64,000 nt of DNA from an uncultured Bacilli bacterium (GCA_944358545.1 CALVRJ010000002.1:3187-67186), one strand, 5' to 3'. Shown: positions 13,750-44,395, numbered from the stretch's first letter. The notes: generated from the letters alone by a model not told the origin. Program-made: numbers and translations.

Positions 13750-13779
13750 TAAAAAAAGAGCCAATAATTATTCGCTCTT
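13750..13779 (-). terminator. uvrB terminator overlapping the stop codon
   Basis: AAGAGC(GAATAATTATTG)GCTCTT hairpin followed by T7 on the minus strand. Confidence 0.5.
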
Positions 13780-15720
13780 CATTTCAAATAAAACATCCCT
13801 AAGTTCCATCGCTCTTTCAAAGTCTAAATTCTTCGCAGCTTCCTTCATTTCTCTTTCAATATTATTCATAAGTTCTTGCTTATCTTTCTTACTCATCTTT
13901 TCCTTCTTCGCTTCAGGAGCTTTTTGTTTATTAGTAACCACATCTCTAATCTCTTTAACAATAGTTTTTGGTACAATTCCATGTTCCTTATTATAAACTT
14001 CCTGAATTCTTCTTCTTCTCTCTGTCTCACTAATAGCTGCCTTCATTGAATCACTCATTATATCCGCATACATAATAACTCTACCATTCGCATTTCTGGC
14101 TGCCCTTCCTATTGTCTGAATTAAACTTCTCTCACTACGTAAAAATCCTTGTTTATCCGCATCTAATATTGCAATTAAACTAACTTCCGGAATATCGATT
14201 CCTTCTCTAAGCAGGTTAATTCCGACAACCACATCATATTTACCAAGTCTTAAATCACGAATAATTTCTAATCTCTCTAAAGTTTTAATCTCATTGTGCA
14301 AATAAGCAACTTTAATATCTAATTTTTTCAAGTAAGCCGTAAGCTCTTCGGCCATTCTGATTGTCAAAGTCGTAATCAAAGTACGTTCATTCTTTTCAAT
14401 CTGTTTATTAATCTGACTTACTAAATCATCAATTTGATTTTCCGTCGGCTTAACCTCAATTTTTGGATCAAGTAAACCTGTCGGCCTAATAATTTGTTCA
14501 ACAACTTTATGATGACATTTTTCAAGCTCATAATCTCCAGGCGTCGCTGAAACATATATCGCATAATCAATCTTTTTCTCAAACTCATCAAACTTAAGTG
14601 GTCTATTATCTAATGCACTAGGAAGTCTAAAACCATAATCTACTAGAGATTGCTTTCGCATCCGGTCTCCATTATACATAGCTCTAACCTGTGGTAAAGT
14701 AACATGAGATTCATCAACAACTAATAAAAAATCATCGCCAAAAAAATCAATTAATGTCGTTGGTGTCTCACCAGGACCTCTCAAAGCTAAATGTCTTGAA
14801 TAATTTTCCACACCTCTACAAAAACCAGTTTCTGAAAGCATCTCTATATCGTAATTAGTTCTTTCCTTAAGTCTCTGATATTCAAGCAATTTATTTTCAC
14901 TTTGAAACTTTTCAAGCTGTTCTTCTAACTCTTTTTTTATTCTTTCAATTGCTATCTTTAACTTACCCTCACTAGTTACAAAGTGACTAGCCGGAAATAA
15001 AGTATAAGTCTTTTTATCATCAGTAATCGTTCCAGTAACCAAATCAAATTCACAAATTCTATCGATTTCGTCTCCAAAAAATTCAATTCTAACCCCCTTA
15101 GAATGCTGACCAATTGGAATAATTTCTAAAACATCCCCTCTTACTCTAAAAGTTCCTCTCTTCAAATCTATATTATTTCGCTCATAAAGCATATCGATTA
15201 ACTTTTCAATTATCTTATCTCTATCGACATTTTCCCCAACACTAAAAAATAGCGTTTTATCTTTATAATCTTCAATTTCCCCAATACCATAAATACAAGA
15301 AACTGAAGCTACAACAATAACATCTTTTCTCGAAATTAAAGCTGCAGTTGCCGCGTGTCTAAGTTCATCTATTTCATCATTAATCGATGCATCCTTTTCA
15401 ATATAAGTATCAGTCTTAGCTACATAAGCTTCCGGCTGATAATAATCATAATATGAAACAAAGTACTCGACGGCGTTTTCCGGAAATAATTCCTTTAATT
15501 CCGCATATAACTGTCCAGCTAAAGTTTTATTATGAGCTAAAACTAAAGTAGGCTTCTGAACTCTTTCGATTACATTGGCAATTGTAAAAGTTTTACCAGT
15601 ACCCGTCGCCCCAAGTAATACTTGATTTTTCTTACCTTCTTCAATTCCTTCTACTAATTTATCTATTGCCTGTGGCTGATCACCACTAGGTTTAAACTTT
15701 GAATGAATCTTAAATTTCAT
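13768..15720 (-). CDS. uvrB: Excinuclease ABC subunit B (intact)
   Basis: 650 aa; Walker A GATGTGKT, helicase motifs, C-terminal UVR domain ([13 protein letters not shown]). Confidence 0.95.
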
Positions 15721-15837: not shown

Positions 15838-15858
15838 ACACATAAAAGTCACAAACTT
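15838..15858. repeat. Left copy of exact 21-bp direct repeat ACACATAAAAGTCACAAACTT (candidate attL core)
   Basis: Identical 21-mer at 43995-44015; sits between the uvrB start and the integrase genes. Confidence 0.6.
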
Positions 15859-15968: not shown

Positions 15969-17270
15969 CTATACTAAATGTAGCTTTTTAAATACTTTAT
16001 CAAAATTCGTTGCAATATCAACAACACTTTTATTTTCGTTTAAAGGCTTAACAACATCTATATAACTATTTAAAGTATCAGATAAATCAATAACAATACT
16101 ACTTTTATCATAATAAACATCTGTTGTTATTATTGTAGAACCATGCCCTAACATAGCCGACACAGCTTTCACACTAAAGCCTTCATTTAAAAGTCTAGTT
16201 GCATAAGTATGTCTTAAATCGTGAAATCTAATATTTGGAAGATTATTTTCCTTAAGTAATTTCTTAAAATATTTATAATAAAAGCTCTTACTTCTTGGAT
16301 GACCATAAGTTGAACAACATATATAATTTAAATCCAAAAAGGGATTATTTTTATCATTAATTCTTCTACTTCTATTTCTTTCATACTTTTTACGTTCTTC
16401 CACTATTGCATTAAAAACTATATCTGGAATATTTAAAATTCTATCACTATTTTTAGTCTTTAAAGGTATTTCCTGTTTTGTATAAGTTTTCAATTTAAAT
16501 TCTTTTTTATTAGAATTCGAAACTACCCCTAATTGTCTACAAACATGTAATTTTTTATTTACAAAATCCACATCAGAATATTTTAAACCATTTATTTCTT
16601 GTTTTCTAAGCCCCATAATAACAGCAAATAAAACCTGTAAATATATGGGCGTTTCTTTGCTCTTTTCAACCAAAGTAAACACTTGCTCATCATTTAAAAC
16701 CTTAGTTGTGTCAATTTTCAAAAATCCATATTTTCCATAATCAACATTTTTAGATAAATAAATATTTTCTGATGGATCAGAACTAATTAAATCATTTTTC
16801 CTTGCAAATTGTAAAGCACCTTTTAATACTACTCTAAGCAATCTCGCAACAGACTTATGCTTTTCAGCTACTTTATCATAAATGGATTTTATATTATCAG
16901 TATTTATTTGACATAAATTAATATTTTTAAAAAATACATCTAAATAATTATAAACAATATTCTTATAAGACATATAACTATTATAAGTTATTTTAGGTTT
17001 CATAATGTTTTCAAGCCAATAATCAAAAAAATCAATAGCTTTAATTTTATTTTCCACAACATAAGTATGAGTTTCAAGTTGTAAAATTACCTTATTTCTC
17101 TCTTTATTAGCCTCGCTTTTTAAATCAAAACCACTGTGTTGCTTTATTGTAACAGTATCATCTGAAAAAAATAATTTAACTCTAAATCCATATTTATCTT
17201 TTATATTAGTAACAGAATAAACAACATAATTCACATAAGTTTTATACAATAATTTTTCAAGCATTAGCAT
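15969..17270 (-). CDS. Tyrosine site-specific recombinase / integrase 1
   Basis: C-terminal R..HDLRHTYAT...LGH...Y catalytic motifs of the phage integrase family. Confidence 0.8.
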   Translation of the reverse strand: MLMLEKLLYKTYVNYVVYSVTNIKDKYGFRVKLFFSDDTVTIKQHSGFDLKSEANKERNKVILQLETHTYVVENKIKAIDFFDYWLENIMKPKITYNSYMSYKNIVYNYLDVFFKNINLCQINTDNIKSIYDKVAEKHKSVARLLRVVLKGALQFARKNDLISSDPSENIYLSKNVDYGKYGFLKIDTTKVLNDEQVFTLVEKSKETPIYLQVLFAVIMGLRKQEINGLKYSDVDFVNKKLHVCRQLGVVSNSNKKEFKLKTYTKQEIPLKTKNSDRILNIPDIVFNAIVEERKKYERNRSRRINDKNNPFLDLNYICCSTYGHPRSKSFYYKYFKKLLKENNLPNIRFHDLRHTYATRLLNEGFSVKAVSAMLGHGSTIITTDVYYDKSSIVIDLSDTLNSYIDVVKPLNENKSVVDIATNFDKVFKKLHLV

Positions 17271-18462
17271 TTACATCAAATAAATTGTTCATGAATGACA
17301 ATATTTTTTCATCGTCATCCATAACTTCACAATAATATTTAAAAGTAGTATGAATAGATTGATGGCCTAAAAAAGCTGATATTTTTGCAAGATTTTCGCC
17401 AACATTAATTGAAGAATTTTCCAATAATATTGTTGCACACATATGTCTTAAAGCATGAACAGTTATATGAGGTAAACTCAAATCATTACATACTTTTTTT
17501 ATATGTGCATTTAATGAAGTTAATGAATGTGGTCTTCCATCAACACCACAGCTAACATAATCATTATCAACATATTTTTCTTGAAATATTTGTTTATTAA
17601 TATTTACTAATTCACTACGTTTAGATAACTCTTCTAAAACTAAGTTAGGTACTCTAATTGTTCTAAAACTATTTGAAGTTTTCGGATAATGTTCCACCAA
17701 ACGATTTTCAATAACTTTAGACGAACCTTTTATTCGTTTTCCACTTTTAACCAATTGTCTTTCAATTCTCAAAGTTTTATTCTGTAAATCAAAATCGCTA
17801 AATTTTAATGCTAATATTTCACCTTTTCTTAAACCGCAAAATAAAGCTAATAATATTTCTAAATACCAATTAGATTCACTCTCTACCTTCAAAAATTTCA
17901 TTAATTGTTTAGTATTTAATATTTTTATTTTAGGTTTTATCCTTGGATAAGTTTTAGTATCTAAAGCAATATTTTTAGTTACTATTTTTTTCTTTACAGC
18001 AAATTTAAAAGCCATAATTAAAATACTACGAACACCTTGTGCCCCATAATCCACCATTTTTGAAATTTTTAAAAGAAGCTCATCCAAATATGAAGTTGTT
18101 ACCAAACTTAATTTCACATCGTAGTCAATATTAGAAAATATTAAATTATAAATCATATATGCAGAAACAATCTCCGTAGAAAATTCTACTTTTGAAGAAT
18201 AAATTTCTTCAAACCAATAAGTTAAGTAATTTTTAAAAGTTATATCCTTATCTATTTCTTTTTTTTGACTTTTCAACTGTTCCTTAAATTCCCTTTCATG
18301 TTCATAATAAGCAATATCAGATTCTTCCTCAGTTTTATAACCTTTTTTCTTTTTATAAATTGTTTCACCATTTGGTCCAACAACTTTATATCTATGACAC
18401 CATGAAGAATATTCATAAAAAGATATACCGTTTTTTCCTTTATAAATTTTACCTCTACTCAT
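17257..18462 (-). CDS. Tyrosine site-specific recombinase / integrase 2 (overlaps integrase 1 by 14 nt)
   Basis: HALRHMCAT...LGHQSIHTTFKYY catalytic box; N-terminal SAM-like domain. Confidence 0.8.
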   Translation of the reverse strand: MSRGKIYKGKNGISFYEYSSWCHRYKVVGPNGETIYKKKKGYKTEEESDIAYYEHEREFKEQLKSQKKEIDKDITFKNYLTYWFEEIYSSKVEFSTEIVSAYMIYNLIFSNIDYDVKLSLVTTSYLDELLLKISKMVDYGAQGVRSILIMAFKFAVKKKIVTKNIALDTKTYPRIKPKIKILNTKQLMKFLKVESESNWYLEILLALFCGLRKGEILALKFSDFDLQNKTLRIERQLVKSGKRIKGSSKVIENRLVEHYPKTSNSFRTIRVPNLVLEELSKRSELVNINKQIFQEKYVDNDYVSCGVDGRPHSLTSLNAHIKKVCNDLSLPHITVHALRHMCATILLENSSINVGENLAKISAFLGHQSIHTTFKYYCEVMDDDEKILSFMNNLFDVNANA

Positions 18463-18713: not shown

Positions 18714-18926
18714 TCATTGTTTTGCACCTTTGACATTCTTAAAATGCTGTATTGAATATTTAAAATAAGGTTTATCGTCAAATATTTTATTCATATTAAC
18801 GTCATAATCAGAACATTTATTAATAAAAGATATAACTTTATTTAATGTTTTTACTTCGTTTTTTTCTCTAACTATCATTTTAATTTGTTGTACCTTTTCC
18901 ACAACAACTAAATATTCTTTCATCAC
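18714..18926 (-). CDS. Hypothetical 70-aa protein translationally coupled (ATGA overlap) to mazF; candidate downstream antitoxin
   Basis: 4-nt overlap with the mazF stop; no recognizable domain. Confidence 0.35.
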   Translation of the reverse strand: MMKEYLVVVEKVQQIKMIVREKNEVKTLNKVISFINKCSDYDVNMNKIFDDKPYFKYSIQHFKNVKGAKQ

Positions 18927-19258
18927 ATACCTCCTAAACTCAAAGAAATAACAATAGCTCTATTTATTTCTTTAATTTTTTTATCTGATAACTTACATAC
19001 AAAGAGTTTTAATCTACTTTTATCAATAGCACGTATTTGTTCTAATAAAACATTAGAAGAATATTTAATAAAATTATTCGGCTTTAAATAAACATGTGTT
19101 GGCAAATTAAGAATTTTAGAAGTAATTGGAGCTACAATAGTTGTCGGACTATATCTGTTTCCGACGTTATTTTGAATTATAACAACTGGTCTTGTTCCAC
19201 CTTGTTCACTTCCCTTGACAGGATCTAAATTAGCATAATATATTTCACCTTTTTTCAT
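18923..19258 (-). CDS. mazF: MazF/PemK-family endoribonuclease toxin
   Basis: GEIYYANLDPVKGSEQGGTRPVVIIQNNVGNRYSPTTIVAPITS is the classic PemK/MazF core. Start placed at ATG 19258 (RBS AAGGGGA 7 nt upstream) rather than the track's 19309. Confidence 0.75.
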   Translation of the reverse strand: MKKGEIYYANLDPVKGSEQGGTRPVVIIQNNVGNRYSPTTIVAPITSKILNLPTHVYLKPNNFIKYSSNVLLEQIRAIDKSRLKLFVCKLSDKKIKEINRAIVISLSLGGM

Positions 19259-19728
19259 TAACATTCCCCTTTCAAAAACATCACAAATAAAATATGTAAA
19301 AAAAAACAATAAGAATAATAAAATCCTATTGTTTGTAAATAATCATAATTAAAATTTTCCTCCTCGCCCTAATTAGGGATTTATCAAACGACTAATTGCT
19401 AATTAGTTCCATAGGAATTTCACCTCAACTGTGGTTCTCACAGAGCCGTTCCGATTGATTGAGTCTATCGCTAAACGGAAGTATCATTATACTTTTAATT
19501 TGTCATCGCAAAATTAAGAGCAACTTAATTTTTATAACCAAATATTTATCGCTAACTATTTAATATAGATTACTGCGTATTTGTTAACGTGCTATAATTA
19601 AAAGAACGTATTTGATAAATGCTATTTGATTATCAAAGAACAAACTTATTTCTAAAAAAGAAACAAGTAAAAGGAACTTATCCTTCCAATTGTTTCCTAA
19701 ATAAAGAGTGATTTAACAGACACAAATT

Positions 19729-21225: not shown

Positions 21226-21855
21226 TTATAAATGCAATATGGCATCACATTCTTGAGCTAATTGTTCATTATGAGTTACCATAATTATAGTTTTTCCTTG
21301 TTTATTTAACTGTTTTAAAATACTCATAACTTTTCTTGCATTAGAATTGTCTAAATTTCCAGTTGGTTCATCAGCTAAAATAATATCTCCTTTTTTTAAC
21401 ATAATACGAGCCAAAGCTACTCTTTGCTGCTCACCTCCAGATAAAGTATAAACCTTCTTATTATTATAAGATGCCAAACCTACTTTGTCTAAAGCTTCTG
21501 ATACTTTTTCTTTTTTTTCTTTCAACGGAATTTTTTCATATTCCAAAGCCAAAAGCAAATTATACTCAACACTTTCATCATCTATTAAAGCATAATTTTG
21601 AAATAAATAGTTTATATTGTTACGGATATATTCATTTACTTGTTTTTCTTTTAACATAGCAACATCTTTTCCGTTAAACAATACTTCTCCAGTATAATCA
21701 AAATCTAATAAACCAATTATATTTAATAAAGTACTTTTACCACAACCACTTTTTCCAACAATAGCCACAAATTCACCATTATTTATTTTATAAGATAAAT
21801 CTGTGAATATAATCTTTTCACCAAAAGATTTACTTACTTTCTTTAATTCAATCAT
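21226..21855 (-). CDS. ABC transporter ATP-binding protein (bacteriocin export/immunity)
   Basis: Walker A GKSGCGKST, signature LSGGEQQR, Walker B IILADEPTG. Confidence 0.85.
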   Translation of the reverse strand: MIELKKVSKSFGEKIIFTDLSYKINNGEFVAIVGKSGCGKSTLLNIIGLLDFDYTGEVLFNGKDVAMLKEKQVNEYIRNNINYLFQNYALIDDESVEYNLLLALEYEKIPLKEKKEKVSEALDKVGLASYNNKKVYTLSGGEQQRVALARIMLKKGDIILADEPTGNLDNSNARKVMSILKQLNKQGKTIIMVTHNEQLAQECDAILHL

Positions 21856-24019
21856 TTGCTCCTCCTTTTAAATCAATATAAACTTTATTAAACTTATATT
21901 TCTGAATTACAAATATAGATATTAAACAATCAATTATCAAAAACAACGATACAGATATAATAAACAAAATAATATTAAGTAAATTTAAAATTAAAAGAAT
22001 AAAGAAAGATATAACTAAGGCAATAACAGTATACAAAATATTTCTCTTCATTATTGGTTCAAAAATTTTAAATTTATCAAATCCTAACAAATATTTCACT
22101 ACAACAGACTGTTGTTCACTTTTAACATATAATGAAAATACTTCAATAGAAATTATAAAGTAAACCAAAACAATCAAAGCAACTCCTAAACACACTACTA
22201 ACATTATTAACCTTGCACGTTGAATTTCGTCATTAAAATAATCTTTAAATGACATAAAATTACTTTGGCCAATCAAATTACTCAAACCAGCTTTTTTTAC
22301 ATCATCTAATACATAATCTAAAGTATTACTATTAACTTTTATTTTTAACCCCGTTGTTAATGAATTGCCAAATACGCTAATTCCTCTAGAACTTTCAATA
22401 TAGGATAATTTTATTGAATCATCAACAACACGTAATCTAGGATTTTTAACATATTTAACACTTAAATCTAGTCTATACGAATTAAAAGATTGATCATCAT
22501 ATAAATACGCTTTAAATTCAAGAGGTATATTATATTTTTCATAATCTTTTTTAGAATCTTCTAAATAATACTTTTTAAATTTTGGAACGATATTTTTTTC
22601 GCTTTTAGCAAACAAGAAAAATACTCCATCAATATTATCAATATCTACCAATTGACCATTTAAATTATATATTTTTATATTCTCTTTTTTTAAATAATTT
22701 CTATCAACAGAAGCATAATCAAAATATTTACCTTCACTTTCCCATTTTTTTATTCTTCTTTCTTCATCAGGTTTTACTTTTACATAATTACTAAATTGAG
22801 AATAAAATGTGGATAGCCTTTTATCATTATATATAATGTTATATAAATTAGCTTGTTTATCATAATCATATATTTCAGGTGAATCAGCATTAAAATCTTT
22901 TATAATTCCATAATCCAATAACTCTTTAGAATTATTATAAACTTTTAACGATGAATTTAAAGATGAAATAGAATTTCCTAATAAAGAAATGCCAACAATC
23001 ATCATTATAGTCATTAAAAGCTTTAATTTAGCACTTGTTTTGCCAATCTTTATTGCAACATTTTGTTTTTTTATAATATTAGAAGTGCGATAACTTTTTA
23101 AAATAAGATTAACACAAAGCATATTCAAAAAATAAGTAATTAACAATAACAAACATGTAATAATCAGCAAGAATAAGAACTGTAAAAGATTCATATTACT
23201 TGCTAAAATCAATGCTAAAATTAAAATAATAATTGAAAAAATAATATATATTTTTAGTTTATTTTTTATCATAATATTAGAAATTTTTATTTTGTCAAAA
23301 CCTAACAACTTCATACAACCAATTTTTTTAGAATTATAATAAGTATCATAAATTTCAAAAACAAAATAAAATATCATTATAAATATAATACTAAATACCA
23401 ACAATATAAATGTTTCGGTTTGCAAATCTGTAATTGATAAGCTGGTAGATATATCTTTATCAACAATTTTTTTTATTTGATTACTAAAATTAACAAAATC
23501 ATCGTAATTCTTGTAATAAACCAAATATTCACCATAATAATTTCCTTTTTCATTTATTAATGTCGAAAAAGTATAAAAATTATATTTGTCATTTTCCAAA
23601 AAATCTTTTATTAAAAAAACTTGTTTACTATCTTGATGATTATATGTAGAAATAAAAGAATCATCTGTTATTTTTTTATTTAATGACACAACTTTAAATT
23701 TTTTACTAATAATTTTTTTTATTTTGTTAATATTATCTAAAGAAACATAAACATTTTTTATAGAACCATCTTTACCAGAAATGTTTGATTTAGCTAAAAC
23801 AACTTTATTATCTTGTGCTAATTTTGCCACTTCTTTCATAGATTTATCATTAATAACGATATCATCGCTATAATTAATTCTAATGGAATCTCTACTATAT
23901 CCAAAAAAGTTCAAATATTGACTCGATTGAGAAAAATTTAGAAAAAGAATAGAAATAATTATTGCTACCAATATACATAAAATAGGTATTATTCTAGTTA
24001 CATATTTCAAAAAAACCAC
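21848..24019 (-). CDS. Bacteriocin-associated large integral membrane protein (Lcn972 ORF2-like, FtsX-like permease)
   Basis: 723 aa, N-terminal TM, large extracellular domain, two clusters of 3-4 TM helices; sits between the bacteriocin and ABC ATPase as in the lactococcin 972 operon. Confidence 0.6.
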   Translation of the reverse strand: MVFLKYVTRIIPILCILVAIIISILFLNFSQSSQYLNFFGYSRDSIRINYSDDIVINDKSMKEVAKLAQDNKVVLAKSNISGKDGSIKNVYVSLDNINKIKKIISKKFKVVSLNKKITDDSFISTYNHQDSKQVFLIKDFLENDKYNFYTFSTLINEKGNYYGEYLVYYKNYDDFVNFSNQIKKIVDKDISTSLSITDLQTETFILLVFSIIFIMIFYFVFEIYDTYYNSKKIGCMKLLGFDKIKISNIMIKNKLKIYIIFSIIILILALILASNMNLLQFLFLLIITCLLLLITYFLNMLCVNLILKSYRTSNIIKKQNVAIKIGKTSAKLKLLMTIMMIVGISLLGNSISSLNSSLKVYNNSKELLDYGIIKDFNADSPEIYDYDKQANLYNIIYNDKRLSTFYSQFSNYVKVKPDEERRIKKWESEGKYFDYASVDRNYLKKENIKIYNLNGQLVDIDNIDGVFFLFAKSEKNIVPKFKKYYLEDSKKDYEKYNIPLEFKAYLYDDQSFNSYRLDLSVKYVKNPRLRVVDDSIKLSYIESSRGISVFGNSLTTGLKIKVNSNTLDYVLDDVKKAGLSNLIGQSNFMSFKDYFNDEIQRARLIMLVVCLGVALIVLVYFIISIEVFSLYVKSEQQSVVVKYLLGFDKFKIFEPIMKRNILYTVIALVISFFILLILNLLNIILFIISVSLFLIIDCLISIFVIQKYKFNKVYIDLKGGAND

Positions 24020-32763: not shown

Positions 32764-33549
32764 TTACCTAGAATATCCTCGGCTTCTATTAATAGTAACT
32801 CTTTGCAAATACTCATCAATGCCTTCATTAATTTTGTTTACAATATTTTTTATTTCAACTAAATCTTTTCGGGCTTCTATACTAGAATTATTTATAAATG
32901 TCTTTGGAAGTTCATCAAAAGAATATGAAGACACATCTAAATCATGAATTTTGCATAAAATATAAGCAATTGATGTAACTTTAAAATTATCCATTTCTTT
33001 ATCATAACTTGAAGTATATTCCAATCTTGCAAGTTCAAATGCTAATGATTTAAAAATCATATTATAGTCCATTCCCCTTCGAATATAAATAATATTCTTA
33101 TTATCACCAACTGTTTCATGACTAGCATTTAAATTAGAATCATCAAAGCCATCAACAGCTTTTATTTCCGCTAAATTATTATGCAAAAAAGCTTTTAATA
33201 GCGTTCTGTTATCATATTTTGTTTTTTTGTTTTTAGCATTTGTTTGGGAAATATCATACATTTCTTTAGAATGATAATCCATAATCTCTTTTTCACCATC
33301 AAAAACTGGTTCTAAAATATATATCGGTTTTGCCTTTTTTGATATCTTAATACTTTCTCTCTCCCAAGCTAAACTATCTTTTATAAGAGTTGCCTTAGGC
33401 ATTTGTGATGCTATTAAAATGGCATTTGCTGTAGAATACTTATAAAACTTTGCTTGAACATCTAAAAAATCTTTAAATGATATAGATTTGTTCTGCAAAT
33501 TTATTATTGCCTCATTTATTATTTTATATAATTCGTTATTATCTTTCAT
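32764..33549 (-). CDS. Hypothetical 261-aa ICE protein
   Basis: ORF within the transfer operon; no diagnostic motif recognized. Confidence 0.35.
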   Translation of the reverse strand: MKDNNELYKIINEAIINLQNKSISFKDFLDVQAKFYKYSTANAILIASQMPKATLIKDSLAWERESIKISKKAKPIYILEPVFDGEKEIMDYHSKEMYDISQTNAKNKKTKYDNRTLLKAFLHNNLAEIKAVDGFDDSNLNASHETVGDNKNIIYIRRGMDYNMIFKSLAFELARLEYTSSYDKEMDNFKVTSIAYILCKIHDLDVSSYSFDELPKTFINNSSIEARKDLVEIKNIVNKINEGIDEYLQRVTINRSRGYSR

Positions 33550-34315
33550 GGCTAGATTTCTCCTTATCTAATAAATTTTCTTCTTTTTTATTTACAAGTG
33601 ATTCTTTTATTTTCCTTAATTTTTTTCTAACAGACTCTTTCTTTTTAGTACCAATTTCTGAGCTTTTTTTGTTCTTCAAGGAAGGTTCGGACTGATTTTT
33701 TTTTACTTTGTTTTCAGACTTGTTTTTAGATTGATTGGAAAATAAATCTTTCATTATTTCCTCATCACTTTTATCTTTGTTTTTATTTTTTGAAGGCTTT
33801 GACAATATATCATCCACAATATCATCATCTTTAGTTCTAACATTTTTACCATGAGTTTTCTTATTATAATCTTTAGGACTATCGTTTTCATGCTCTACAG
33901 TTGTCTCTTTATAAGTTGAAAATTTATATCTATTTATTATGCGATTAATTCTTGCAGCGTCTTCGGCCCTTACCATAAAATCAATCATTCCATCTTTGTC
34001 TTGATGTTTTTTATCAATTAATAAAGCATATAATATTCCATATCTTTTAGCAACTTGTTGAAAAAATTTTAATTCTTCTTTTCTTACCGAAAACACTTTT
34101 AAAGGTCTACCTGACTTTAGTAATTTTTCAAGTTTAGTTTTTCCTTTAGTCTGTTTCTTCCCACGATAAATAGCATAAAGTAAAGCAGCAATATTTTTTG
34201 CTGCCACTCCTGTTAATCTCAAAGTAACTTCTGTTCCTTGCAAGCTCATTCTTACAACCGATTCAGCTGCCTCTCCTGAATTCATTTCTATCAACTTCCT
34301 TTCTATTTTCTTCAT
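33539..34315 (-). CDS. Hypothetical protein with ~120-aa Lys-rich low-complexity tail (relaxosome accessory candidate, PcfB/DUF3801-like?)
   Basis: N-terminal ~130 aa globular, then a K/N/S-rich tail; immediately downstream of the relaxase. Confidence 0.35.
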   Translation of the reverse strand: MKKIERKLIEMNSGEAAESVVRMSLQGTEVTLRLTGVAAKNIAALLYAIYRGKKQTKGKTKLEKLLKSGRPLKVFSVRKEELKFFQQVAKRYGILYALLIDKKHQDKDGMIDFMVRAEDAARINRIINRYKFSTYKETTVEHENDSPKDYNKKTHGKNVRTKDDDIVDDILSKPSKNKNKDKSDEEIMKDLFSNQSKNKSENKVKKNQSEPSLKNKKSSEIGTKKKESVRKKLRKIKESLVNKKEENLLDKEKSSHER

Positions 34316-35576
34316 CTTGTTTTTTTATATTATTTTCAATCATTGATTTTCTTTTTTCAATTTCGTAAAGTAGCTTAACCTCTCTACGTAAATCATTTAT
34401 TTCTTTACTTAATCGACTATTTTCAAGTTGATATGTTACCAAATCTTCTTTACTAGTAGTCTTCTTTATCTTATAATTTAACTTCTCTTTTCTATCTAAT
34501 AAAGTATCTAGTTGCTTTTCTTTCTTTGTTTTAAATTTAATAAAATCTACATCAGTAATTATATTATTATTTCCAAGTAATTCCGTTTGTTTCATTAGAT
34601 TATCAAACTCTTTTAAATCAGATCTAATTTCTGGAATTAATTTATAATTTAAATTCTTTTTAGGAAACACTTCAAGCAAATAACAATAATACATAAATAA
34701 TCCGTAAATTCCTTTATTTCTGTTTTTCATTTTAAAAAAGTTTTCTACAGGTGTTCTCCCTTTTTTAATAAAATTTTCTTCAATTCTTTTTATTATATTT
34801 GCTTTACTATACTCATTACCAAATGTTCTAGAAACCCTAACTTTAAACCCGTCTAGCTTTCTTCTTATACTAAATATCTTATTAATGATAGTAACTTCAT
34901 ATCCCATTGAATTTAATTTATTTAAAAAGTCTTTATACGAATAAGAATTTAAAATAGCCGCATCAAGATCATCTTTTATCATTTGATAATAATCAGAAGA
35001 ATTAACATATTTTTTATAAAAGTTTTCATACTTAAATCCTGCTTTACTCTTCTTTTCAGTAAGTATACTTAATCCATATTCTGCACATAAATCGTCCGAA
35101 AGTCTTCTTAATCTAGCATAATTAATATTGTTATCATAATATTTTTTTCCATCTTTAAAGGAAACTGAATTAATAACAAAATGGTTATGAATGTGTTTAG
35201 TATTTTGGTGAGTACTAATAACAACTTCAAATCTATCTCCCCACATTTCGTTAGCAAGTTGAACACCTATTTTATGAGCAAGTTCCGGAGTAACTTCACC
35301 TTCCGCAAAAGACTGATAAGCATGGAATCCTAAAATACCGCCTTCTTTTTTATATGACTTTTTAGTTAAAATCATTTCCTTATAAGCCGTCTCAACAGAA
35401 CAATTAAGTGCAGAAACATAACATTCCTTTTCTGATTTTAAATCTATAAGTTCCTTATCATGCAAATTAAAAAACTCTTCACCATAAGAAGAGTTTCTCG
35501 TTTTTTCAATATTAGTTGTATATTCTATAACATGATCTAATCTTTTGTTAATTTTCCATATTTTTGTAGTAGCCAT
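34263..35576 (-). CDS. Conjugative relaxase (MobA/VirD2 Relaxase domain, MOBP-like)
   Basis: Histidine triad HQNTKHIHNHFVIN (H.D/N..H.H.H); N-terminal Tyr region; C-terminal coiled-coil. Confidence 0.65.
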   Translation of the reverse strand: MATTKIWKINKRLDHVIEYTTNIEKTRNSSYGEEFFNLHDKELIDLKSEKECYVSALNCSVETAYKEMILTKKSYKKEGGILGFHAYQSFAEGEVTPELAHKIGVQLANEMWGDRFEVVISTHQNTKHIHNHFVINSVSFKDGKKYYDNNINYARLRRLSDDLCAEYGLSILTEKKSKAGFKYENFYKKYVNSSDYYQMIKDDLDAAILNSYSYKDFLNKLNSMGYEVTIINKIFSIRRKLDGFKVRVSRTFGNEYSKANIIKRIEENFIKKGRTPVENFFKMKNRNKGIYGLFMYYCYLLEVFPKKNLNYKLIPEIRSDLKEFDNLMKQTELLGNNNIITDVDFIKFKTKKEKQLDTLLDRKEKLNYKIKKTTSKEDLVTYQLENSRLSKEINDLRREVKLLYEIEKRKSMIENNIKKQDEENRKEVDRNEFRRGS

Positions 35577-35608
35577 ATATCACCACCCTAAATAACAAAA
35601 ATATAATA

Positions 35609-37078
35609 TTATTCATAAAAGAAAAAGTTTATTTCATCAGTACCAATAATGGAATCTATATTTTCTATTTCAGTTTCATTTATCAATACAGATTCATCAA
35701 TCTTAAAAGGAAGCCAAGAAGAATTCCATAATTCTTCTTTACAACCATAAACTTTTTTAGCTAATAAAGTAGAGTATTCTTTATCTCTGTTAAACTTTAA
35801 AGTTATACGCTGCAAACACATATTTATGTCATCTGTATTAGGTATTTCTTTAAATTTATTTCTAATACTTTCTATATAATAATCTATCTTATCAGTACAA
35901 AAGCTAAGTAACTTACTTAATATCCCTGAACAAGCCATATATGATTTAGGATTTCTAATTAATATATCGGTAGTTATACTGATTAATTGTTCCAAACATT
36001 CTGGTTCTTCTTCTAAATCTTTCAATTTTTTTTCATAGAAATTTACAAGCATTTTTTTTACAAAACTACTGTTTGGATTTTTCAAAGAAAACTGTCTTAT
36101 TTTTAATAACCAGTTTAAAATACTTTTATCTTCAACTATCAAAAACAAACTATTCAATTTATCTTGTTTAATAGAATTAGATATAACATCATCACAAACA
36201 AAAGTCTTTTTAGTATTAAATTTCATGTTTAATTCTGATAAAACTTCTGATAAAATTTTCAAAATCTTTTCTAAATCAGATTTACTATTTGAAAAAATTC
36301 TATAATCATCTCTAAATCGTATTATCTTATAATCATATATATCTTTTAATCTTTCAGATAATAACATATCTGCATATCCTAAAACTATTTCGGCAATAAA
36401 ATCCATTAATACACTTCCCTGAGGAATACCATTTGTTTGTCCATATGACATACATTGTATTCTCTCATCAATGATATTACCTATTATAGGGTCAAAGCGA
36501 TGGTCTTTCGCATATAATTTATCATGTATTGCCCACGAAATAGAATGAGTATATATAGAACTATAGCAATTTTCAATATCCGCATGAGCCATATATTTAT
36601 AATTCAAAGATAATTGTATACTTCGATTTTCAATGTTCTCTAACCAATTATCTATTATATTTGCAGTAGAACTTTTATCATTATCCGAATCAAAAGGAAT
36701 ACTATAACATTCAATATTACATAAATTTCTAAATTGTTTTAATCGTTCTGTTATAATTTTCCAATTATCAGGTTTTGTTATTTCATAAACTAAATCTATA
36801 TATAAAATTGGATGTATTATTTGCAGTTGTCGCCAAGTATATTTACCATCCTTGTTCGACATATAATTGTAATTAACATTCTCACATTTTTTAACTTGTT
36901 TTATTAAGTCTTTATCAAGTTTACATGAAAGATCATAAAAATATTTACATTCTGACATTTTTAATAAAGCACCAAAATCAAAATATTTTGGCAAATCAAT
37001 CGAACAATAATTAGAACCTTCTAGGAAAAAAAGCTTTGCTTGATTAGCCTCCATATCTATAACGCTTAATCTTTCCAT
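35609..37078 (-). CDS. Reverse transcriptase-like protein (Abi/unknown-group, putative defence RT) embedded in the mob operon
   Basis: RT palm motifs: A (MAHADIENCYSSI), B (GIPQGSVLMDFIAEIVL), C-like (IIRFRDDYRIF). No maturase/X or endonuclease domain and no canonical YADD. Confidence 0.6.
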   Translation of the reverse strand: MERLSVIDMEANQAKLFFLEGSNYCSIDLPKYFDFGALLKMSECKYFYDLSCKLDKDLIKQVKKCENVNYNYMSNKDGKYTWRQLQIIHPILYIDLVYEITKPDNWKIITERLKQFRNLCNIECYSIPFDSDNDKSSTANIIDNWLENIENRSIQLSLNYKYMAHADIENCYSSIYTHSISWAIHDKLYAKDHRFDPIIGNIIDERIQCMSYGQTNGIPQGSVLMDFIAEIVLGYADMLLSERLKDIYDYKIIRFRDDYRIFSNSKSDLEKILKILSEVLSELNMKFNTKKTFVCDDVISNSIKQDKLNSLFLIVEDKSILNWLLKIRQFSLKNPNSSFVKKMLVNFYEKKLKDLEEEPECLEQLISITTDILIRNPKSYMACSGILSKLLSFCTDKIDYYIESIRNKFKEIPNTDDINMCLQRITLKFNRDKEYSTLLAKKVYGCKEELWNSSWLPFKIDESVLINETEIENIDSIIGTDEINFFFYE

Positions 37079-37131
37079 ATTACCACCTCGACAAGTATTA
37101 TATCACTCATCATTTGTCTTTTCATTGTCTT

Positions 37132-37446
37132 TTATATTAAAAATTCTTTTTTTATATCTATAATAAATTTGTTCAACTTTTCTGTTTCTTTGTTATATGA
37201 ATCTCTATCTATATAATTTAAATGATTGGCTTTCTTTGCAATTTGATTTAAATTATTTCCTATATATCTAAGTTGTTTAATTGCCTCATAAAACCTATCA
37301 TCAGGTTTTTCTCTCGGCTGAAAATTCATTATTAAATTACGTAATAAAGTAGCCTCATTTAAACCGGTTTTTTTAGCTTGTTTTTTTAACTGTGTAGCTT
37401 CTTCTCTATTAAGCCATATTTGTTTTTTTATATTTCTTTTTCTCAT
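37132..37446 (-). CDS. mobC: MobC-family relaxosome accessory protein
   Basis: FYEAIKQLRYIGNNLNQIAKKANHLN is the MobC signature (L..IGNNLNQIA). Start placed at ATG 37446 (MRKRNIKK...). Confidence 0.6.
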   Translation of the reverse strand: MRKRNIKKQIWLNREEATQLKKQAKKTGLNEATLLRNLIMNFQPREKPDDRFYEAIKQLRYIGNNLNQIAKKANHLNYIDRDSYNKETEKLNKFIIDIKKEFLI

Positions 37447-37544
37447 TTTATTACATTTCCACCTTTCAAACTTAAATTTCCCACATATATAAACCATAAT
37501 TTTATTAGAATATTACGGGAGTAAATATTCAGTGCTTGCTAGGA

Positions 37545-37578
37545 CAAAAATTCAGACCTAAAAAAATCTGAATTTAAT
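37545..37578 (-). terminator. Hairpin AAATTCAGA(N11)TCTGAATTT plus T-run: terminator after the primase-like gene and/or oriT-associated inverted repeat upstream of mobC
   Basis: 9-bp stem read directly; T-run on the minus strand; ~90 nt upstream of mobC. Confidence 0.4.
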
Positions 37579-37598
37579 CCTTAAACACACTGAAAAAA

Positions 37599-38540
37599 TC
37601 ATCGGCTTTCTCTATCTATGTTCCTCTTTACATAACATAAAAAATCATTAAAATCTTTACAAATTACAGCTGGCTTATCAAACACTTCATATCCGCCTGA
37701 TAAAACATTGCTTATCGCTTTAGCTGATAACCTACCTACATCATCATTATCTAAATGTAAAATAATCCTTTTTATATTTGGATTATTTTTTAAATAATTA
37801 AGTAATGACGAAGGCAAATTACTATACCTAAGATTATTTGGAACATAAACTCCACCAAATGATAACAAGTTATATTTATGCCAGTCAATATTACTCATTT
37901 TTAATATAGTAGCATAAGATAACAAGTCAATTGCACTTTCAAACAAATGTAGATCTTTATTCTTCACGTCAGAACTAATTCTAAATGAATACTCTTTACA
38001 GCTTCCAGTTACTTCCTTAATAAATCTATGTTGTCCGGTGCCTCTGCACATTGCATATTTTGGCACTTTATTTTCATTATATCCAACAAAAACTACATTA
38101 TTATTAACATCTTGATAAATAAGACTATTATTTATACATTCATTAATAATTGAATCATCAATACCTCTTTTAGTTAAATACTTTATTGCTACATCGTTAT
38201 TTTTAGCTTTAACTGGTAACTTAAACATTGTTTTATTAACTTCTGGACACTTAGAAATATCTAGATTCTGAACCATATTAATTTTATCTAATATTATTTT
38301 CATAGAATCCATAAAACTATAACCTCTAACTTTAATTAAATAATCTAATGCGCTCTTTCCACCAATGCTTTTTGAAAACCAATACCACATACCATTAGAA
38401 ATCTTTAAACTATCATGAGTCTTTGTCGTATAGTTTCCTCTACAAACAACAATCAGTTCATCTGGCTCAAAGTTCTGCAAATATGTTAGTAAATCGATTT
38501 GTTTTACTTTTTGAATTGTATTTTTTGAATAATAAGGCAT
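37599..38540 (-). CDS. DUF3991 plus Toprim domain protein (putative conjugative primase)
   Basis: Toprim acidic motif IILHLDNDDVG; preceding ESAIDLLSY region typical of DUF3991 proteins of Firmicutes ICEs. Confidence 0.5.
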   Translation of the reverse strand: MPYYSKNTIQKVKQIDLLTYLQNFEPDELIVVCRGNYTTKTHDSLKISNGMWYWFSKSIGGKSALDYLIKVRGYSFMDSMKIILDKINMVQNLDISKCPEVNKTMFKLPVKAKNNDVAIKYLTKRGIDDSIINECINNSLIYQDVNNNVVFVGYNENKVPKYAMCRGTGQHRFIKEVTGSCKEYSFRISSDVKNKDLHLFESAIDLLSYATILKMSNIDWHKYNLLSFGGVYVPNNLRYSNLPSSLLNYLKNNPNIKRIILHLDNDDVGRLSAKAISNVLSGGYEVFDKPAVICKDFNDFLCYVKRNIDRESR

Positions 38541-39202: not shown

Positions 39203-39538
39203 CTATCTTTCTTGTTCATTTTCTTTATATTTAGTAGATAAAAAAGTAACCTTCTCCGCAATTACTTCCATAACAATTCTATTATTTTCATCGTTATTGT
39301 AAGTTTGAAGACGACCTTTAATACCAACAAGATCACCTTTCTTACAATATTCAGCCGTATTAGTAGCAATTCCTTGCCACAATTTACAATTTACAAAGTC
39401 AGTTTCATACTCACCATCTTCATTTTTAAAAGACCTTGGCACTGCCAATGTTACATTTGTATACTTCTTTCCGCTTTCAGTTTCATAAACCTCTGGTTCA
39501 TTTGCTAAACGTCCTACTAAAACTACCTGATTTAACAT
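39203..39538 (-). CDS. ssb: Single-stranded DNA-binding protein (plasmid/ICE type, no acidic tail)
   Basis: OB-fold N-terminus MLNQVVLVGRLANEPE...; 111 aa. Confidence 0.75.
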   Translation of the reverse strand: MLNQVVLVGRLANEPEVYETESGKKYTNVTLAVPRSFKNEDGEYETDFVNCKLWQGIATNTAEYCKKGDLVGIKGRLQTYNNDENNRIVMEVIAEKVTFLSTKYKENEQER

Positions 39539-43994: not shown

Positions 43995-44015
43995 ACACAT
44001 AAAAGTCACAAACTT
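43995..44015. repeat. Right copy of 21-bp direct repeat ACACATAAAAGTCACAAACTT (candidate attR core)
   Basis: Exact match to 15838-15858. Confidence 0.6.
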
Positions 44016-44116
44016 TTTGTGTCCATCTAGTATTATTAAGTTTTTTTAATGTTTTTTAATACTTTTTTAGGGATTATCAAACATCAAAAAGTCTTAAAAA
44101 TCAACGGTTTTTAATG

Positions 44117-44395
44117 TTAAACATAGTATGAAACGAAATATTCGACCGCATTTTCAGGAAATAATTCCTTAAGCTCTGCGTATAACTGTCCAGCAAGCGT
44201 CTTATTATGAGCTAAAACTAAAGTTGGTTTTTGAACCCTTTCAATCACATTGGCAATCGTAAAAGTCTTTCCAGTACCTGTTGCTCCAAGTAATACTTGA
44301 CTTTTCTTACCTTCTTCAATCCCTTCCACTAATTTATCTATCGCCTGTGGCTGATCACCACTAGGTTTAAACTTTGAATGAATCTTAAATTTCAT
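44117..44395 (-). pseudogene. uvrB': Duplicated, diverged uvrB 5' fragment (codons 1-91, then stop)
   Basis: 92-aa ORF identical in protein to UvrB residues 1-91 except N32S. At nt level, the first ~58 nt are identical to 15663-15720, then ~85-90% identity with mostly synonymous changes. Walker A retained; RBS AAAGGTGA. Confidence 0.8.

Follow-up and report, generated by a model that had tools for sequence, protein, structure and literature searches.

An Abi-P2-family reverse transcriptase in an accessory-gene slot between mobC and the relaxase gene of a gut Firmicute conjugative element

The mob operon and its additional gene

This study deals with a reverse transcriptase (RT) gene that lies within the mob operon of an integrative and conjugative element (ICE), in a stretch of 64,000 nucleotides from an uncultured Bacilli bacterium (GCA_944358545.1, CALVRJ010000002.1:3187-67186; hereafter the window, with positions counted from its first letter). 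Three genes follow each other on the minus strand: mobC (37132-37446), encoding a relaxosome accessory protein of 104 amino acids (aa) (NikA-like/MobC; PF21983, E=8e-17, and PF05713, E=2e-8), the RT gene (35609-37078), encoding 489 aa and matching RVT_1 in a Pfam scan, and the relaxase gene (34263-35576), whose 437-aa product is of the MOBP/Q type with a MobA/VirD2-like nuclease domain (PF03432, E=1e-40) and has ~5000 homologues, nearly all of them in gut Firmicutes metagenomes. This order, with spacers of 53 nt upstream of the RT (37131-37079) and 32 nt downstream of it (35608-35577), had been described in an earlier note on this DNA, and it matches both the open reading frame (ORF) calls and a direct reading of the strand. 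The shorter spacer carries the ribosome-binding site (RBS) of the relaxase gene, GGGTGGTG, and a scan of both spacers returned no terminator-like hairpin. As for the extent of mobC, the ORF calls (37132-37497, 35609-37078 and 34263-35576, all minus) give it 121 aa when counted from the first ATG, but the start at 37446, which the earlier note had chosen, is the better one, because it is preceded by an RBS, because mobC is also 104 aa long in the sibling elements L009 and L126, and because the NikA-like Pfam match starts at residue 19 of the 121-aa form.

An intact Abi-P2 enzyme

The RT is intact and falls into the known Abi-P2 family, which belongs to class 1 of the unknown group/abortive infection (UG/Abi) defence RTs. 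It had previously been likened to Abi/UG (DRT-type) defence RTs in general, and the profile search proposed at the time makes this assignment specific, since the PADLOC AbiP2 model (PDLC03744) is the best match by far (E=1.1e-170, residues 3-488 on profile positions 4-485 of 489), followed by RT_UG14 (5.6e-54) and Drt6 (1.9e-46), and by Drt4, Drt3b and AbiK, down to ~1e-28. All of the NCBIfam models for Drt4, Drt3b, group II and AbiA score far under their own cut-offs (114 bits against 450 in the case of Drt4). In phage records, tblastn picked out the Abi-P2 genes of P2-EC30 and P2-EC58, on which the family was founded and with which 98-99% of the RT aligns at 32-34% identity, and phmmer against PDB sequences found the Abi-P2 crystal structure 7r08 (E=3e-78, RT residues 6-459).

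The fold gives the same answer. An AlphaFold2 (AF2) model built from a 36-sequence alignment is confident throughout (pLDDT 89.1, pTM 0.89), and Foldseek aligns it with 7r08 over ~510 columns at template modelling (TM) scores of 0.87/0.87 (query/target), while DRT6, DRT4 and AbiK reach 0.53-0.64 and the RTs of group II introns, retrons, diversity-generating retroelements (DGR) and telomerase 0.3-0.4. The model is bilobal, with fingers and palm in one lobe, an all-helical C-terminal domain in the other (from approximately residue 300 to 489) and no thumb, which is the Abi-P2 architecture. Since the model superposes on 7r08, what had been described as N- and C-terminal 'extensions' are the Abi-P2 fingers subdomain, with its priming Tyr, and the helical domain specific to the family.

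Like other Abi-P2 genes, this one stands alone, with neither a non-coding RNA (ncRNA) nor an effector as partner, and the neighbours of its relatives vary widely. At gathering thresholds, Rfam finds a single match in the whole window, a pemK RNA away from the RT locus, and a permissive scan (E<=1) of 34000-38000 finds no family at all. Spacers of 53 and 32 nt leave no space for an intron or msr/msd RNA. A group II origin finds no support in an Rfam intron, in the TIGR04416 score (57 bits against a cut-off of 300, palm only) or in the fold (TM 0.37-0.39 to the GsI-IIC RT), and the same goes for a retron (no Rfam retron family, no spacer room, TM 0.31-0.35 to retron RTs). The earlier view that this is neither a group II intron nor a retron is thus upheld by the Rfam null, the domain content and the fold comparison.

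Active site and priming residue

Residue conservation was scored in a 121-sequence alignment of the Abi-P2 family. Motif A (D167), motif B (QTNGIPQGS) and motif C (RFRDD, residues 254-258) can all be recognised in the RT, the first two as the earlier note had read them (GIPQG). D167, D257, D258 and QTNGIPQGS are invariant or nearly so in the alignment (the catalytic Asp in 121/121), as are Y172 and YTHS, and the window RT has every one of them. Motif C had been called atypical, and we do not share this view. YRDD is a documented Abi-P2 active-site motif and a hallmark of the family (PMC8632793), and the consensus around it is RYRDDYRIF, so that RFRDD is the typical motif with one conservative Tyr to Phe change. 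Only F255 is unusual (2/121 members have it), and the RT of L009 retains the Tyr. In AbiK, the corresponding Tyr245 (Tyr282 of Abi-P2) stacks on a base of the nascent DNA, and Ala is the only substitution reported to be deleterious there (PMC9508834); Phe255 should preserve this aromatic stacking.

Abi-P2 enzymes polymerise DNA without a template and prime on a protein residue; they have no thumb, and their channel is too narrow to admit a duplex (PMC9508834). The priming residue is Tyr61, in the alpha2-alpha3 loop of the fingers, and a Y61F mutant is unable to polymerise DNA (PMC9508834). In the phmmer alignment LPKY32FDF of the RT pairs with LPAY61INF of 7r08, which makes Tyr32 the equivalent of Tyr61, and this position is a Tyr in 120/121 family members.

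A recurrent slot for accessory genes

Scanning a genome collection with the relaxase gave 80 sibling loci at 34-62% identity, in metagenome-assembled genomes (MAGs) of gut Clostridia and Bacilli, and none of the 80 has an RT within 8 kb on either side of the relaxase. A mobC hidden Markov model detects mobC upstream of the relaxase in 56 sibling loci, and the gap between the two genes is at most 40 nt in 45 of them and more than 300 nt in the other 11. When the junction is empty, the stop codon of mobC and the RBS of the relaxase gene overlap (...TTTTTGTAGGAGGTGGTAATATGGC). That the RT is an insertion between mobC and relaxase, as first proposed, is therefore borne out by the 45 abutted siblings, and still more directly by L126, which has no RT cassette. 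The L009 ICE, with an RT, and the L126 ICE, without one, are near-twins that differ cleanly at the junction, 1,563 bp against 20 bp, and the 1,563-bp segment consists of spacer, RT and spacer. Since near-identical ICEs differ by this cassette, the RT is polymorphic among them, and it is evidently dispensable for the element.

The nucleotide identity between L009 and L126 is 82-88% left of the slot (88% over Toprim-oriT-mobC) and 95% from the relaxase start onward, a step suggestive of recombination, with its breakpoint at the mobC|relaxase junction or close by. Among the sibling relaxases, L076, L094 and L095 are mosaic, with an N-terminal nuclease domain 56-62% identical to that of the window and a C-terminal part at 32-35%.

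The junction is a recurrent accessory-gene slot in this gut-Firmicute ICE family, with several kinds of occupants. The RT is found there in two diverged variants, one in the window and the identical contigs L005-L008, the other in L009 and L010, at 64% aa identity. Elsewhere the slot holds a widespread 196-aa ORFan (L122-L124, 4330-4920; the neighbouring relaxase, P0138, is on 54 contigs), three ORFans of 186, 153 and 166 aa (L125, 3340-4931), Xre-type helix-turn-helix (HTH) genes (L017) or two small ORFs (L018). Pfam and PADLOC searches of these alternative occupants gave no significant family except Xre-type HTH, and the label 'defence hot spot' was rejected for occupants without defence families. 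L121, whose relaxase is 89% identical, might represent another state of the slot, a suggestive but weak case: on this low-coverage contig the 98 nt available upstream are non-coding and AT-rich and bear no relation to the 3' end of the RT. By eye, no repeats or recombination sites were seen at the cassette ends in the window, L009 or L126. The RBS region of the RT resembles the ancestral junction of mobC stop and relaxase RBS, a likeness that was judged ordinary Shine-Dalgarno similarity. Another ORF of ~215 aa, with no Pfam or PADLOC family, lies between Toprim and mobC in L122 (3242-3889).

Selection and history

Between the window and L009, whose mobC proteins are 74% identical, the RT has dS=1.0, dN=0.25 and omega=0.25, the latter being approximate because dS ~1 is close to saturation. 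These values fall within the range of the backbone genes (dS 0.84-1.8, omega 0.09-0.38), and several samples contributed the 6 contigs on which the identical RT protein occurs. Purifying selection has acted on the RT as it diverged together with the ICE backbone. The simplest history would be one acquisition in a common ancestor, followed by co-divergence and, in L126, by later loss or recombinational replacement.

Expression

The longer spacer contains a promoter-like element at 37097-37125 (minus strand), ATGAAA and, 17 nt further on, the extended -10 TGaTATAAT, which came from a promoter scan and is conserved in L009/L010. Its key positions (the hexamers and the TG) are all kept in these relatives (14/14), against 23/39 in the rest of the spacer (Fisher p=0.0025). 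Because ATGAAA-17 nt-TGnTATAAT is conserved in this spacer, the RT probably has its own promoter, whose function we infer from sequence, in addition to read-through from mobC. The statement that the RT is 'almost certainly co-transcribed' with the relaxosome genes holds insofar as neither spacer has a terminator, but should be amended by this probable second start. The relaxase, in turn, would be co-transcribed with the RT, since there is no terminator downstream of the latter.

The oriT candidate and the host element

Upstream of mobC, at 37527-37574 (minus strand), lies a strong candidate for the origin of transfer (oriT), an inverted repeat (AAATTCAGA/TCTGAATTT, 37574-37548) followed by the core TTGTCCTAGCAAGCACTGAAT (37547-37527). 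The 21-nt core (TTGTCCTAGCAAGCAyTGAAT) hardly varies upstream of mobC among ~25 sibling ICEs, although their proteins share only 42-49% identity, and the arms of the inverted repeat show compensatory changes in L009. The RT is ~450 nt from this candidate. It had been assigned to a 'leading region', an assignment that the gene order does not support, as the Toprim, single-stranded DNA-binding protein (SSB) and ParAB genes are across the oriT candidate from the RT and are transcribed toward that candidate.

The element as a whole spans ~28.7 kb (15668-44395, minus strand), as delimited by a flanking uvrB repeat and by ICE gene families. It encodes ParAB, an adhesin, a sortase, SSB, Toprim, MobC, the RT, the relaxase, a PcfB-like DUF3801 protein, a type IV coupling protein (T4CP), a type IV secretion system (T4SS), a CHAP protein, a PemK toxin and two Tyr integrases, besides oriT. 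The relaxase, T4CP, VirB4-type T4SS, integrase and flanking att repeats are those of an ICE, and as no named plasmid relative of the relaxase exceeds 35% identity, the element cannot be placed in a named ICE or plasmid family. The ends are an imperfect direct repeat of ~280 bp with ~88% identity (15440-15720 and 44115-44395, at a constant offset of 28,675 bp), within which a 53-nt core is identical (15668-15720 and 44343-44395). Both repeats are the 5' end of uvrB, intact at 13768-15720 and left as a 92-aa remnant with UvrB domains at 44117-44395, and the ICE is integrated into uvrB, for which it supplies a replacement 5' end.

Further features of the element are (i) two tandem, overlapping tyrosine recombinase genes for 433 and 401 aa at the uvrB-proximal end (15969-18462, minus), (ii) beside them, a PemK/MazF-family toxin gene (18923-19309, minus) with the Rfam pemK RNA motif ahead of it (19409-19490, 55.7 bits), (iii) just within both ends, a 21-nt direct repeat, ACACATAAAAGTCACAAACTT (15838-15858 and 43995-44015), which may be an arm-type site for the recombinases, (iv) a 261-aa ORF without a Pfam family (32764-33549, minus), between the PcfB-like DUF3801 and T4CP genes and present in all syntenic siblings, and (v) a conserved 723-aa ORF, likewise without a Pfam family (21848-24019, minus), which adjoins an ABC-type ATPase and a signal peptidase.

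Relatives and known systems

The next-closest RTs (47-52% identity) are outside mob operons. P0014 is part of an AbiEi/AbiEii-RT-MmeI-ThsB(TIR) islet on a small integrative mobilizable element, P0003 adjoins an AAA_14 ATPase on another small mobilizable element and P0006 is chromosomal, beside acpS. Plasmid homologues at ~40% identity adjoin restriction-modification systems. Of the 17 RT loci in IMG/VR, mob genes occur close to the RT in two, L115 (mobC-relaxase-3 ORFs-RT-Abi-like-integrase) and L104 (RT...mobC-relaxase), and in neither of these is the RT between mobC and the relaxase. A scan of metagenome contigs with the RT returned only one irrelevant fragment at 28% identity, and in the literature searched neither ICEs nor mob operons were reported to carry Abi-P2. 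From the loci of these relatives, Abi-P2 genes are common cargo of mobilizable elements, and placement within a mob operon is specific to the lineage of the window.

The best comparison is with the Abi-P2 proteins of E. coli P2-like prophages (7r08), which are of the same length class, align end to end and share the two-lobe, thumbless architecture, an xRDD motif C, the Asp triad, the priming Tyr in the alpha2-alpha3 loop and the organisation as a single gene without ncRNA. The differences are in context (a Firmicute ICE mob operon versus the hypervariable region of a P2 prophage) and in detail (FRDD instead of YRDD, and T166A beside the motif A Asp).

AbiK (pSRQ800) and AbiA (pTR2030) of Lactococcus, which are likewise Abi RTs on mobilizable or conjugative Firmicute plasmids, are RT-like abortive-infection polymerases that are protein-primed and template-independent (PMC9508834, PMC8632793). 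They are only distantly related to the window RT (PADLOC AbiK, E=7e-29; TM ~0.53 to AbiK and ~0.46 to AbiA), which has an unrelated helical domain and no HEPN domain. DRT4 (UG15) and DRT6 (UG12), single-gene systems of the same UG/Abi class that share the theme of hexameric, template-independent single-stranded DNA (ssDNA) synthesis, are the second-best matches in profile and fold, far weaker than Abi-P2 (E ~1e-40 to 1e-46, TM ~0.63).

As regards the site, ICE cargo hot spots such as the variable regions of SXT/R391 hold defence systems. The slot described here resembles these in being a fixed intergenic position of the backbone with alternative accessory genes in each family member, and differs from them in that it splits a tightly abutted mobC-relaxase pair and is occupied mostly by ORFans. 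Another RT-encoding gene tied to a conjugative relaxase gene is the group II intron Ll.LtrB, which sits in the relaxase gene ltrB of pRS01 (PMC8632793); it is self-splicing and interrupts the relaxase ORF, whereas the window RT is free-standing between ORFs and has neither intron RNA nor maturase.

What the RT may do

We consider it probable that the RT is an optional anti-phage Abi-P2 cargo of the ICE, outside the conjugation machinery. Anti-phage cargo had been one of the two functions suggested for it in the earlier note, and the family, the polymorphic cargo slot and the defence context of the relatives make this the best-supported function. A cassette of 1.56 kb, made up of the promoter-like spacer, the RT and a spacer with a new relaxase RBS, would have entered the normally 12-15-nt mobC-relaxase junction in one lineage of this gut-Firmicute ICE family. 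The RT would then be expressed from its own promoter and by read-through from mobC, with the relaxase now downstream of it. By homology (PMC9508834), from which we infer its enzymatic activity, trigger and defence phenotype alike, it would assemble into trimers or hexamers, prime on the hydroxyl of its own Tyr32 and synthesise untemplated ssDNA in the channel between the palm/fingers lobe and the C-terminal helical lobe. Polymerisation triggered by a phage would abort the infection, shielding the clonal population that carries the ICE.

Several observations weigh against this interpretation. The sole phenotype known for Abi-P2, exclusion of T5 by the Abi-P2 of E. coli P2 prophages (PMC8632793), comes from homologues that are 32-34% identical, none of them Gram-positive. 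One would hardly expect a constitutive defence gene inside an operon that many ICEs repress when integrated, unless the promoter in the spacer works, and the case for that promoter rests on two sequences. Finally, the RT has rare substitutions beside the active site (T166A and G173S, which adjoin motif A, and Y255F), and deviates from the family at 14/139 conserved columns, against a median of 2, the most of any sequence along with P0002, its relative in L009.

In a variant of the cargo interpretation that seems unlikely to us, the mobC|relaxase junction would be a slot reserved for accessory genes and equipped with a promoter, and would serve defence or counter-defence at the time of transfer or establishment. 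The ORFans would be defence or anti-defence genes of a still uncharacterised kind, and RT and relaxase expression would be mechanistically coupled. Whatever occupies the slot would, were this true, be expressed along with the relaxase and upstream of it.

The unusual residues could also mean that the gene is in decay or its enzyme catalytically impaired, a remnant passively kept since the relaxase depends on transcription through it. T166A and Y255F are rare and lie beside catalytic residues, and the deviation count is the highest in the set, but with one tight cluster dominating the 120-sequence sample the count was judged to be confounded, and dN/dS was used instead. An omega of 0.25 against L009, like that of essential backbone genes, is not what would be expected of a remnant, nor are a full-length ORF with catalytic Asp and priming Tyr intact, an identical protein on 6 contigs from several samples or an AF2 model that is confident throughout. 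Moreover, Tyr to Phe keeps the aromatic stacking (only Y245A has been shown to impair AbiK) and L009 retains the Tyr. We consider decay improbable, and likewise a nonfunctional motif C or pseudogene, which the earlier note had named as a way in which its proposal might fail, in a full-length gene with the Asp triad and Tyr32 in place.

There is an equally slim chance that the RT acts not on phages but on competing mobile elements, such as plasmids and other ICEs, or while the ICE becomes established in a new host, with expression tied to transfer. The operon in which it adjoins the relaxase would fit such a role, and other Abi/UG RTs (DRT4, DRT10) are triggered by ssDNA-binding or annealing proteins of a kind that conjugative elements encode, including the SSB of this ICE (39203-39538). 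Against this, the conserved promoter in the spacer suggests transfer-independent expression, and the relatives of the RT are among classical anti-phage systems.

The other function suggested in the earlier note was action on the transferred single strand, and it can be widened to any part in conjugative DNA processing, such as priming or extending DNA in donor or recipient, which would account for co-expression with the relaxosome. The location, ~450 nt from the oriT candidate and between relaxosome genes with no terminator, speaks for it, as does retention in place through a divergence of dS ~1. Yet 45/56 sibling mob operons lack the RT, as does a near-twin ICE whose identity from the relaxase on is 95%, unrelated ORFans fill the same slot elsewhere, the next-closest RTs are in defence islets or chromosomal sites, and the template-independent, protein-primed, thumbless Abi-P2 enzymes have a channel too narrow for duplex DNA (PMC9508834). 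A role on the transferred strand is unlikely because the RT is missing from most siblings and from the near-twin and because Abi-P2 enzymes need no template and have no thumb, and we would give conjugative processing at large very little credence.

That the RT belongs to a group II intron, retron or DGR and that its partner RNA escaped notice has next to no chance, despite the RVT_1 match and a weak NCBIfam group II match (57 bits against 300). This reading is effectively refuted by the absence of any Rfam match in 34-38 kb at E<=1, or in the window at gathering scores except pemK, by spacers too short for an RNA gene, by the lack of a maturase or endonuclease domain and by a fold that reaches TM 0.87 with Abi-P2 but 0.3-0.4 with the RTs of group II introns, retrons and DGR.

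Implications

The anti-phage cargo interpretation leaves our understanding of Abi RTs and conjugation unchanged, and makes the RT a tidy, fairly ordinary case of defence cargo. The family was already known; what is modestly new is a slot that splits the mobC-relaxase pair, together with a natural pair of near-identical ICEs, one with the RT and one without, which defines the cassette to the base pair. A well-documented ICE-borne Gram-positive lineage is thereby added to the Abi-P2 family, known experimentally only from E. coli prophage proteins. For the ICE family, a tightly abutted mobC-relaxase pair tolerates an insertion of 1.5 kb, its junction is a recurrent cargo slot, and the ORFans found there are inexpensive candidates for new defence or anti-defence genes.

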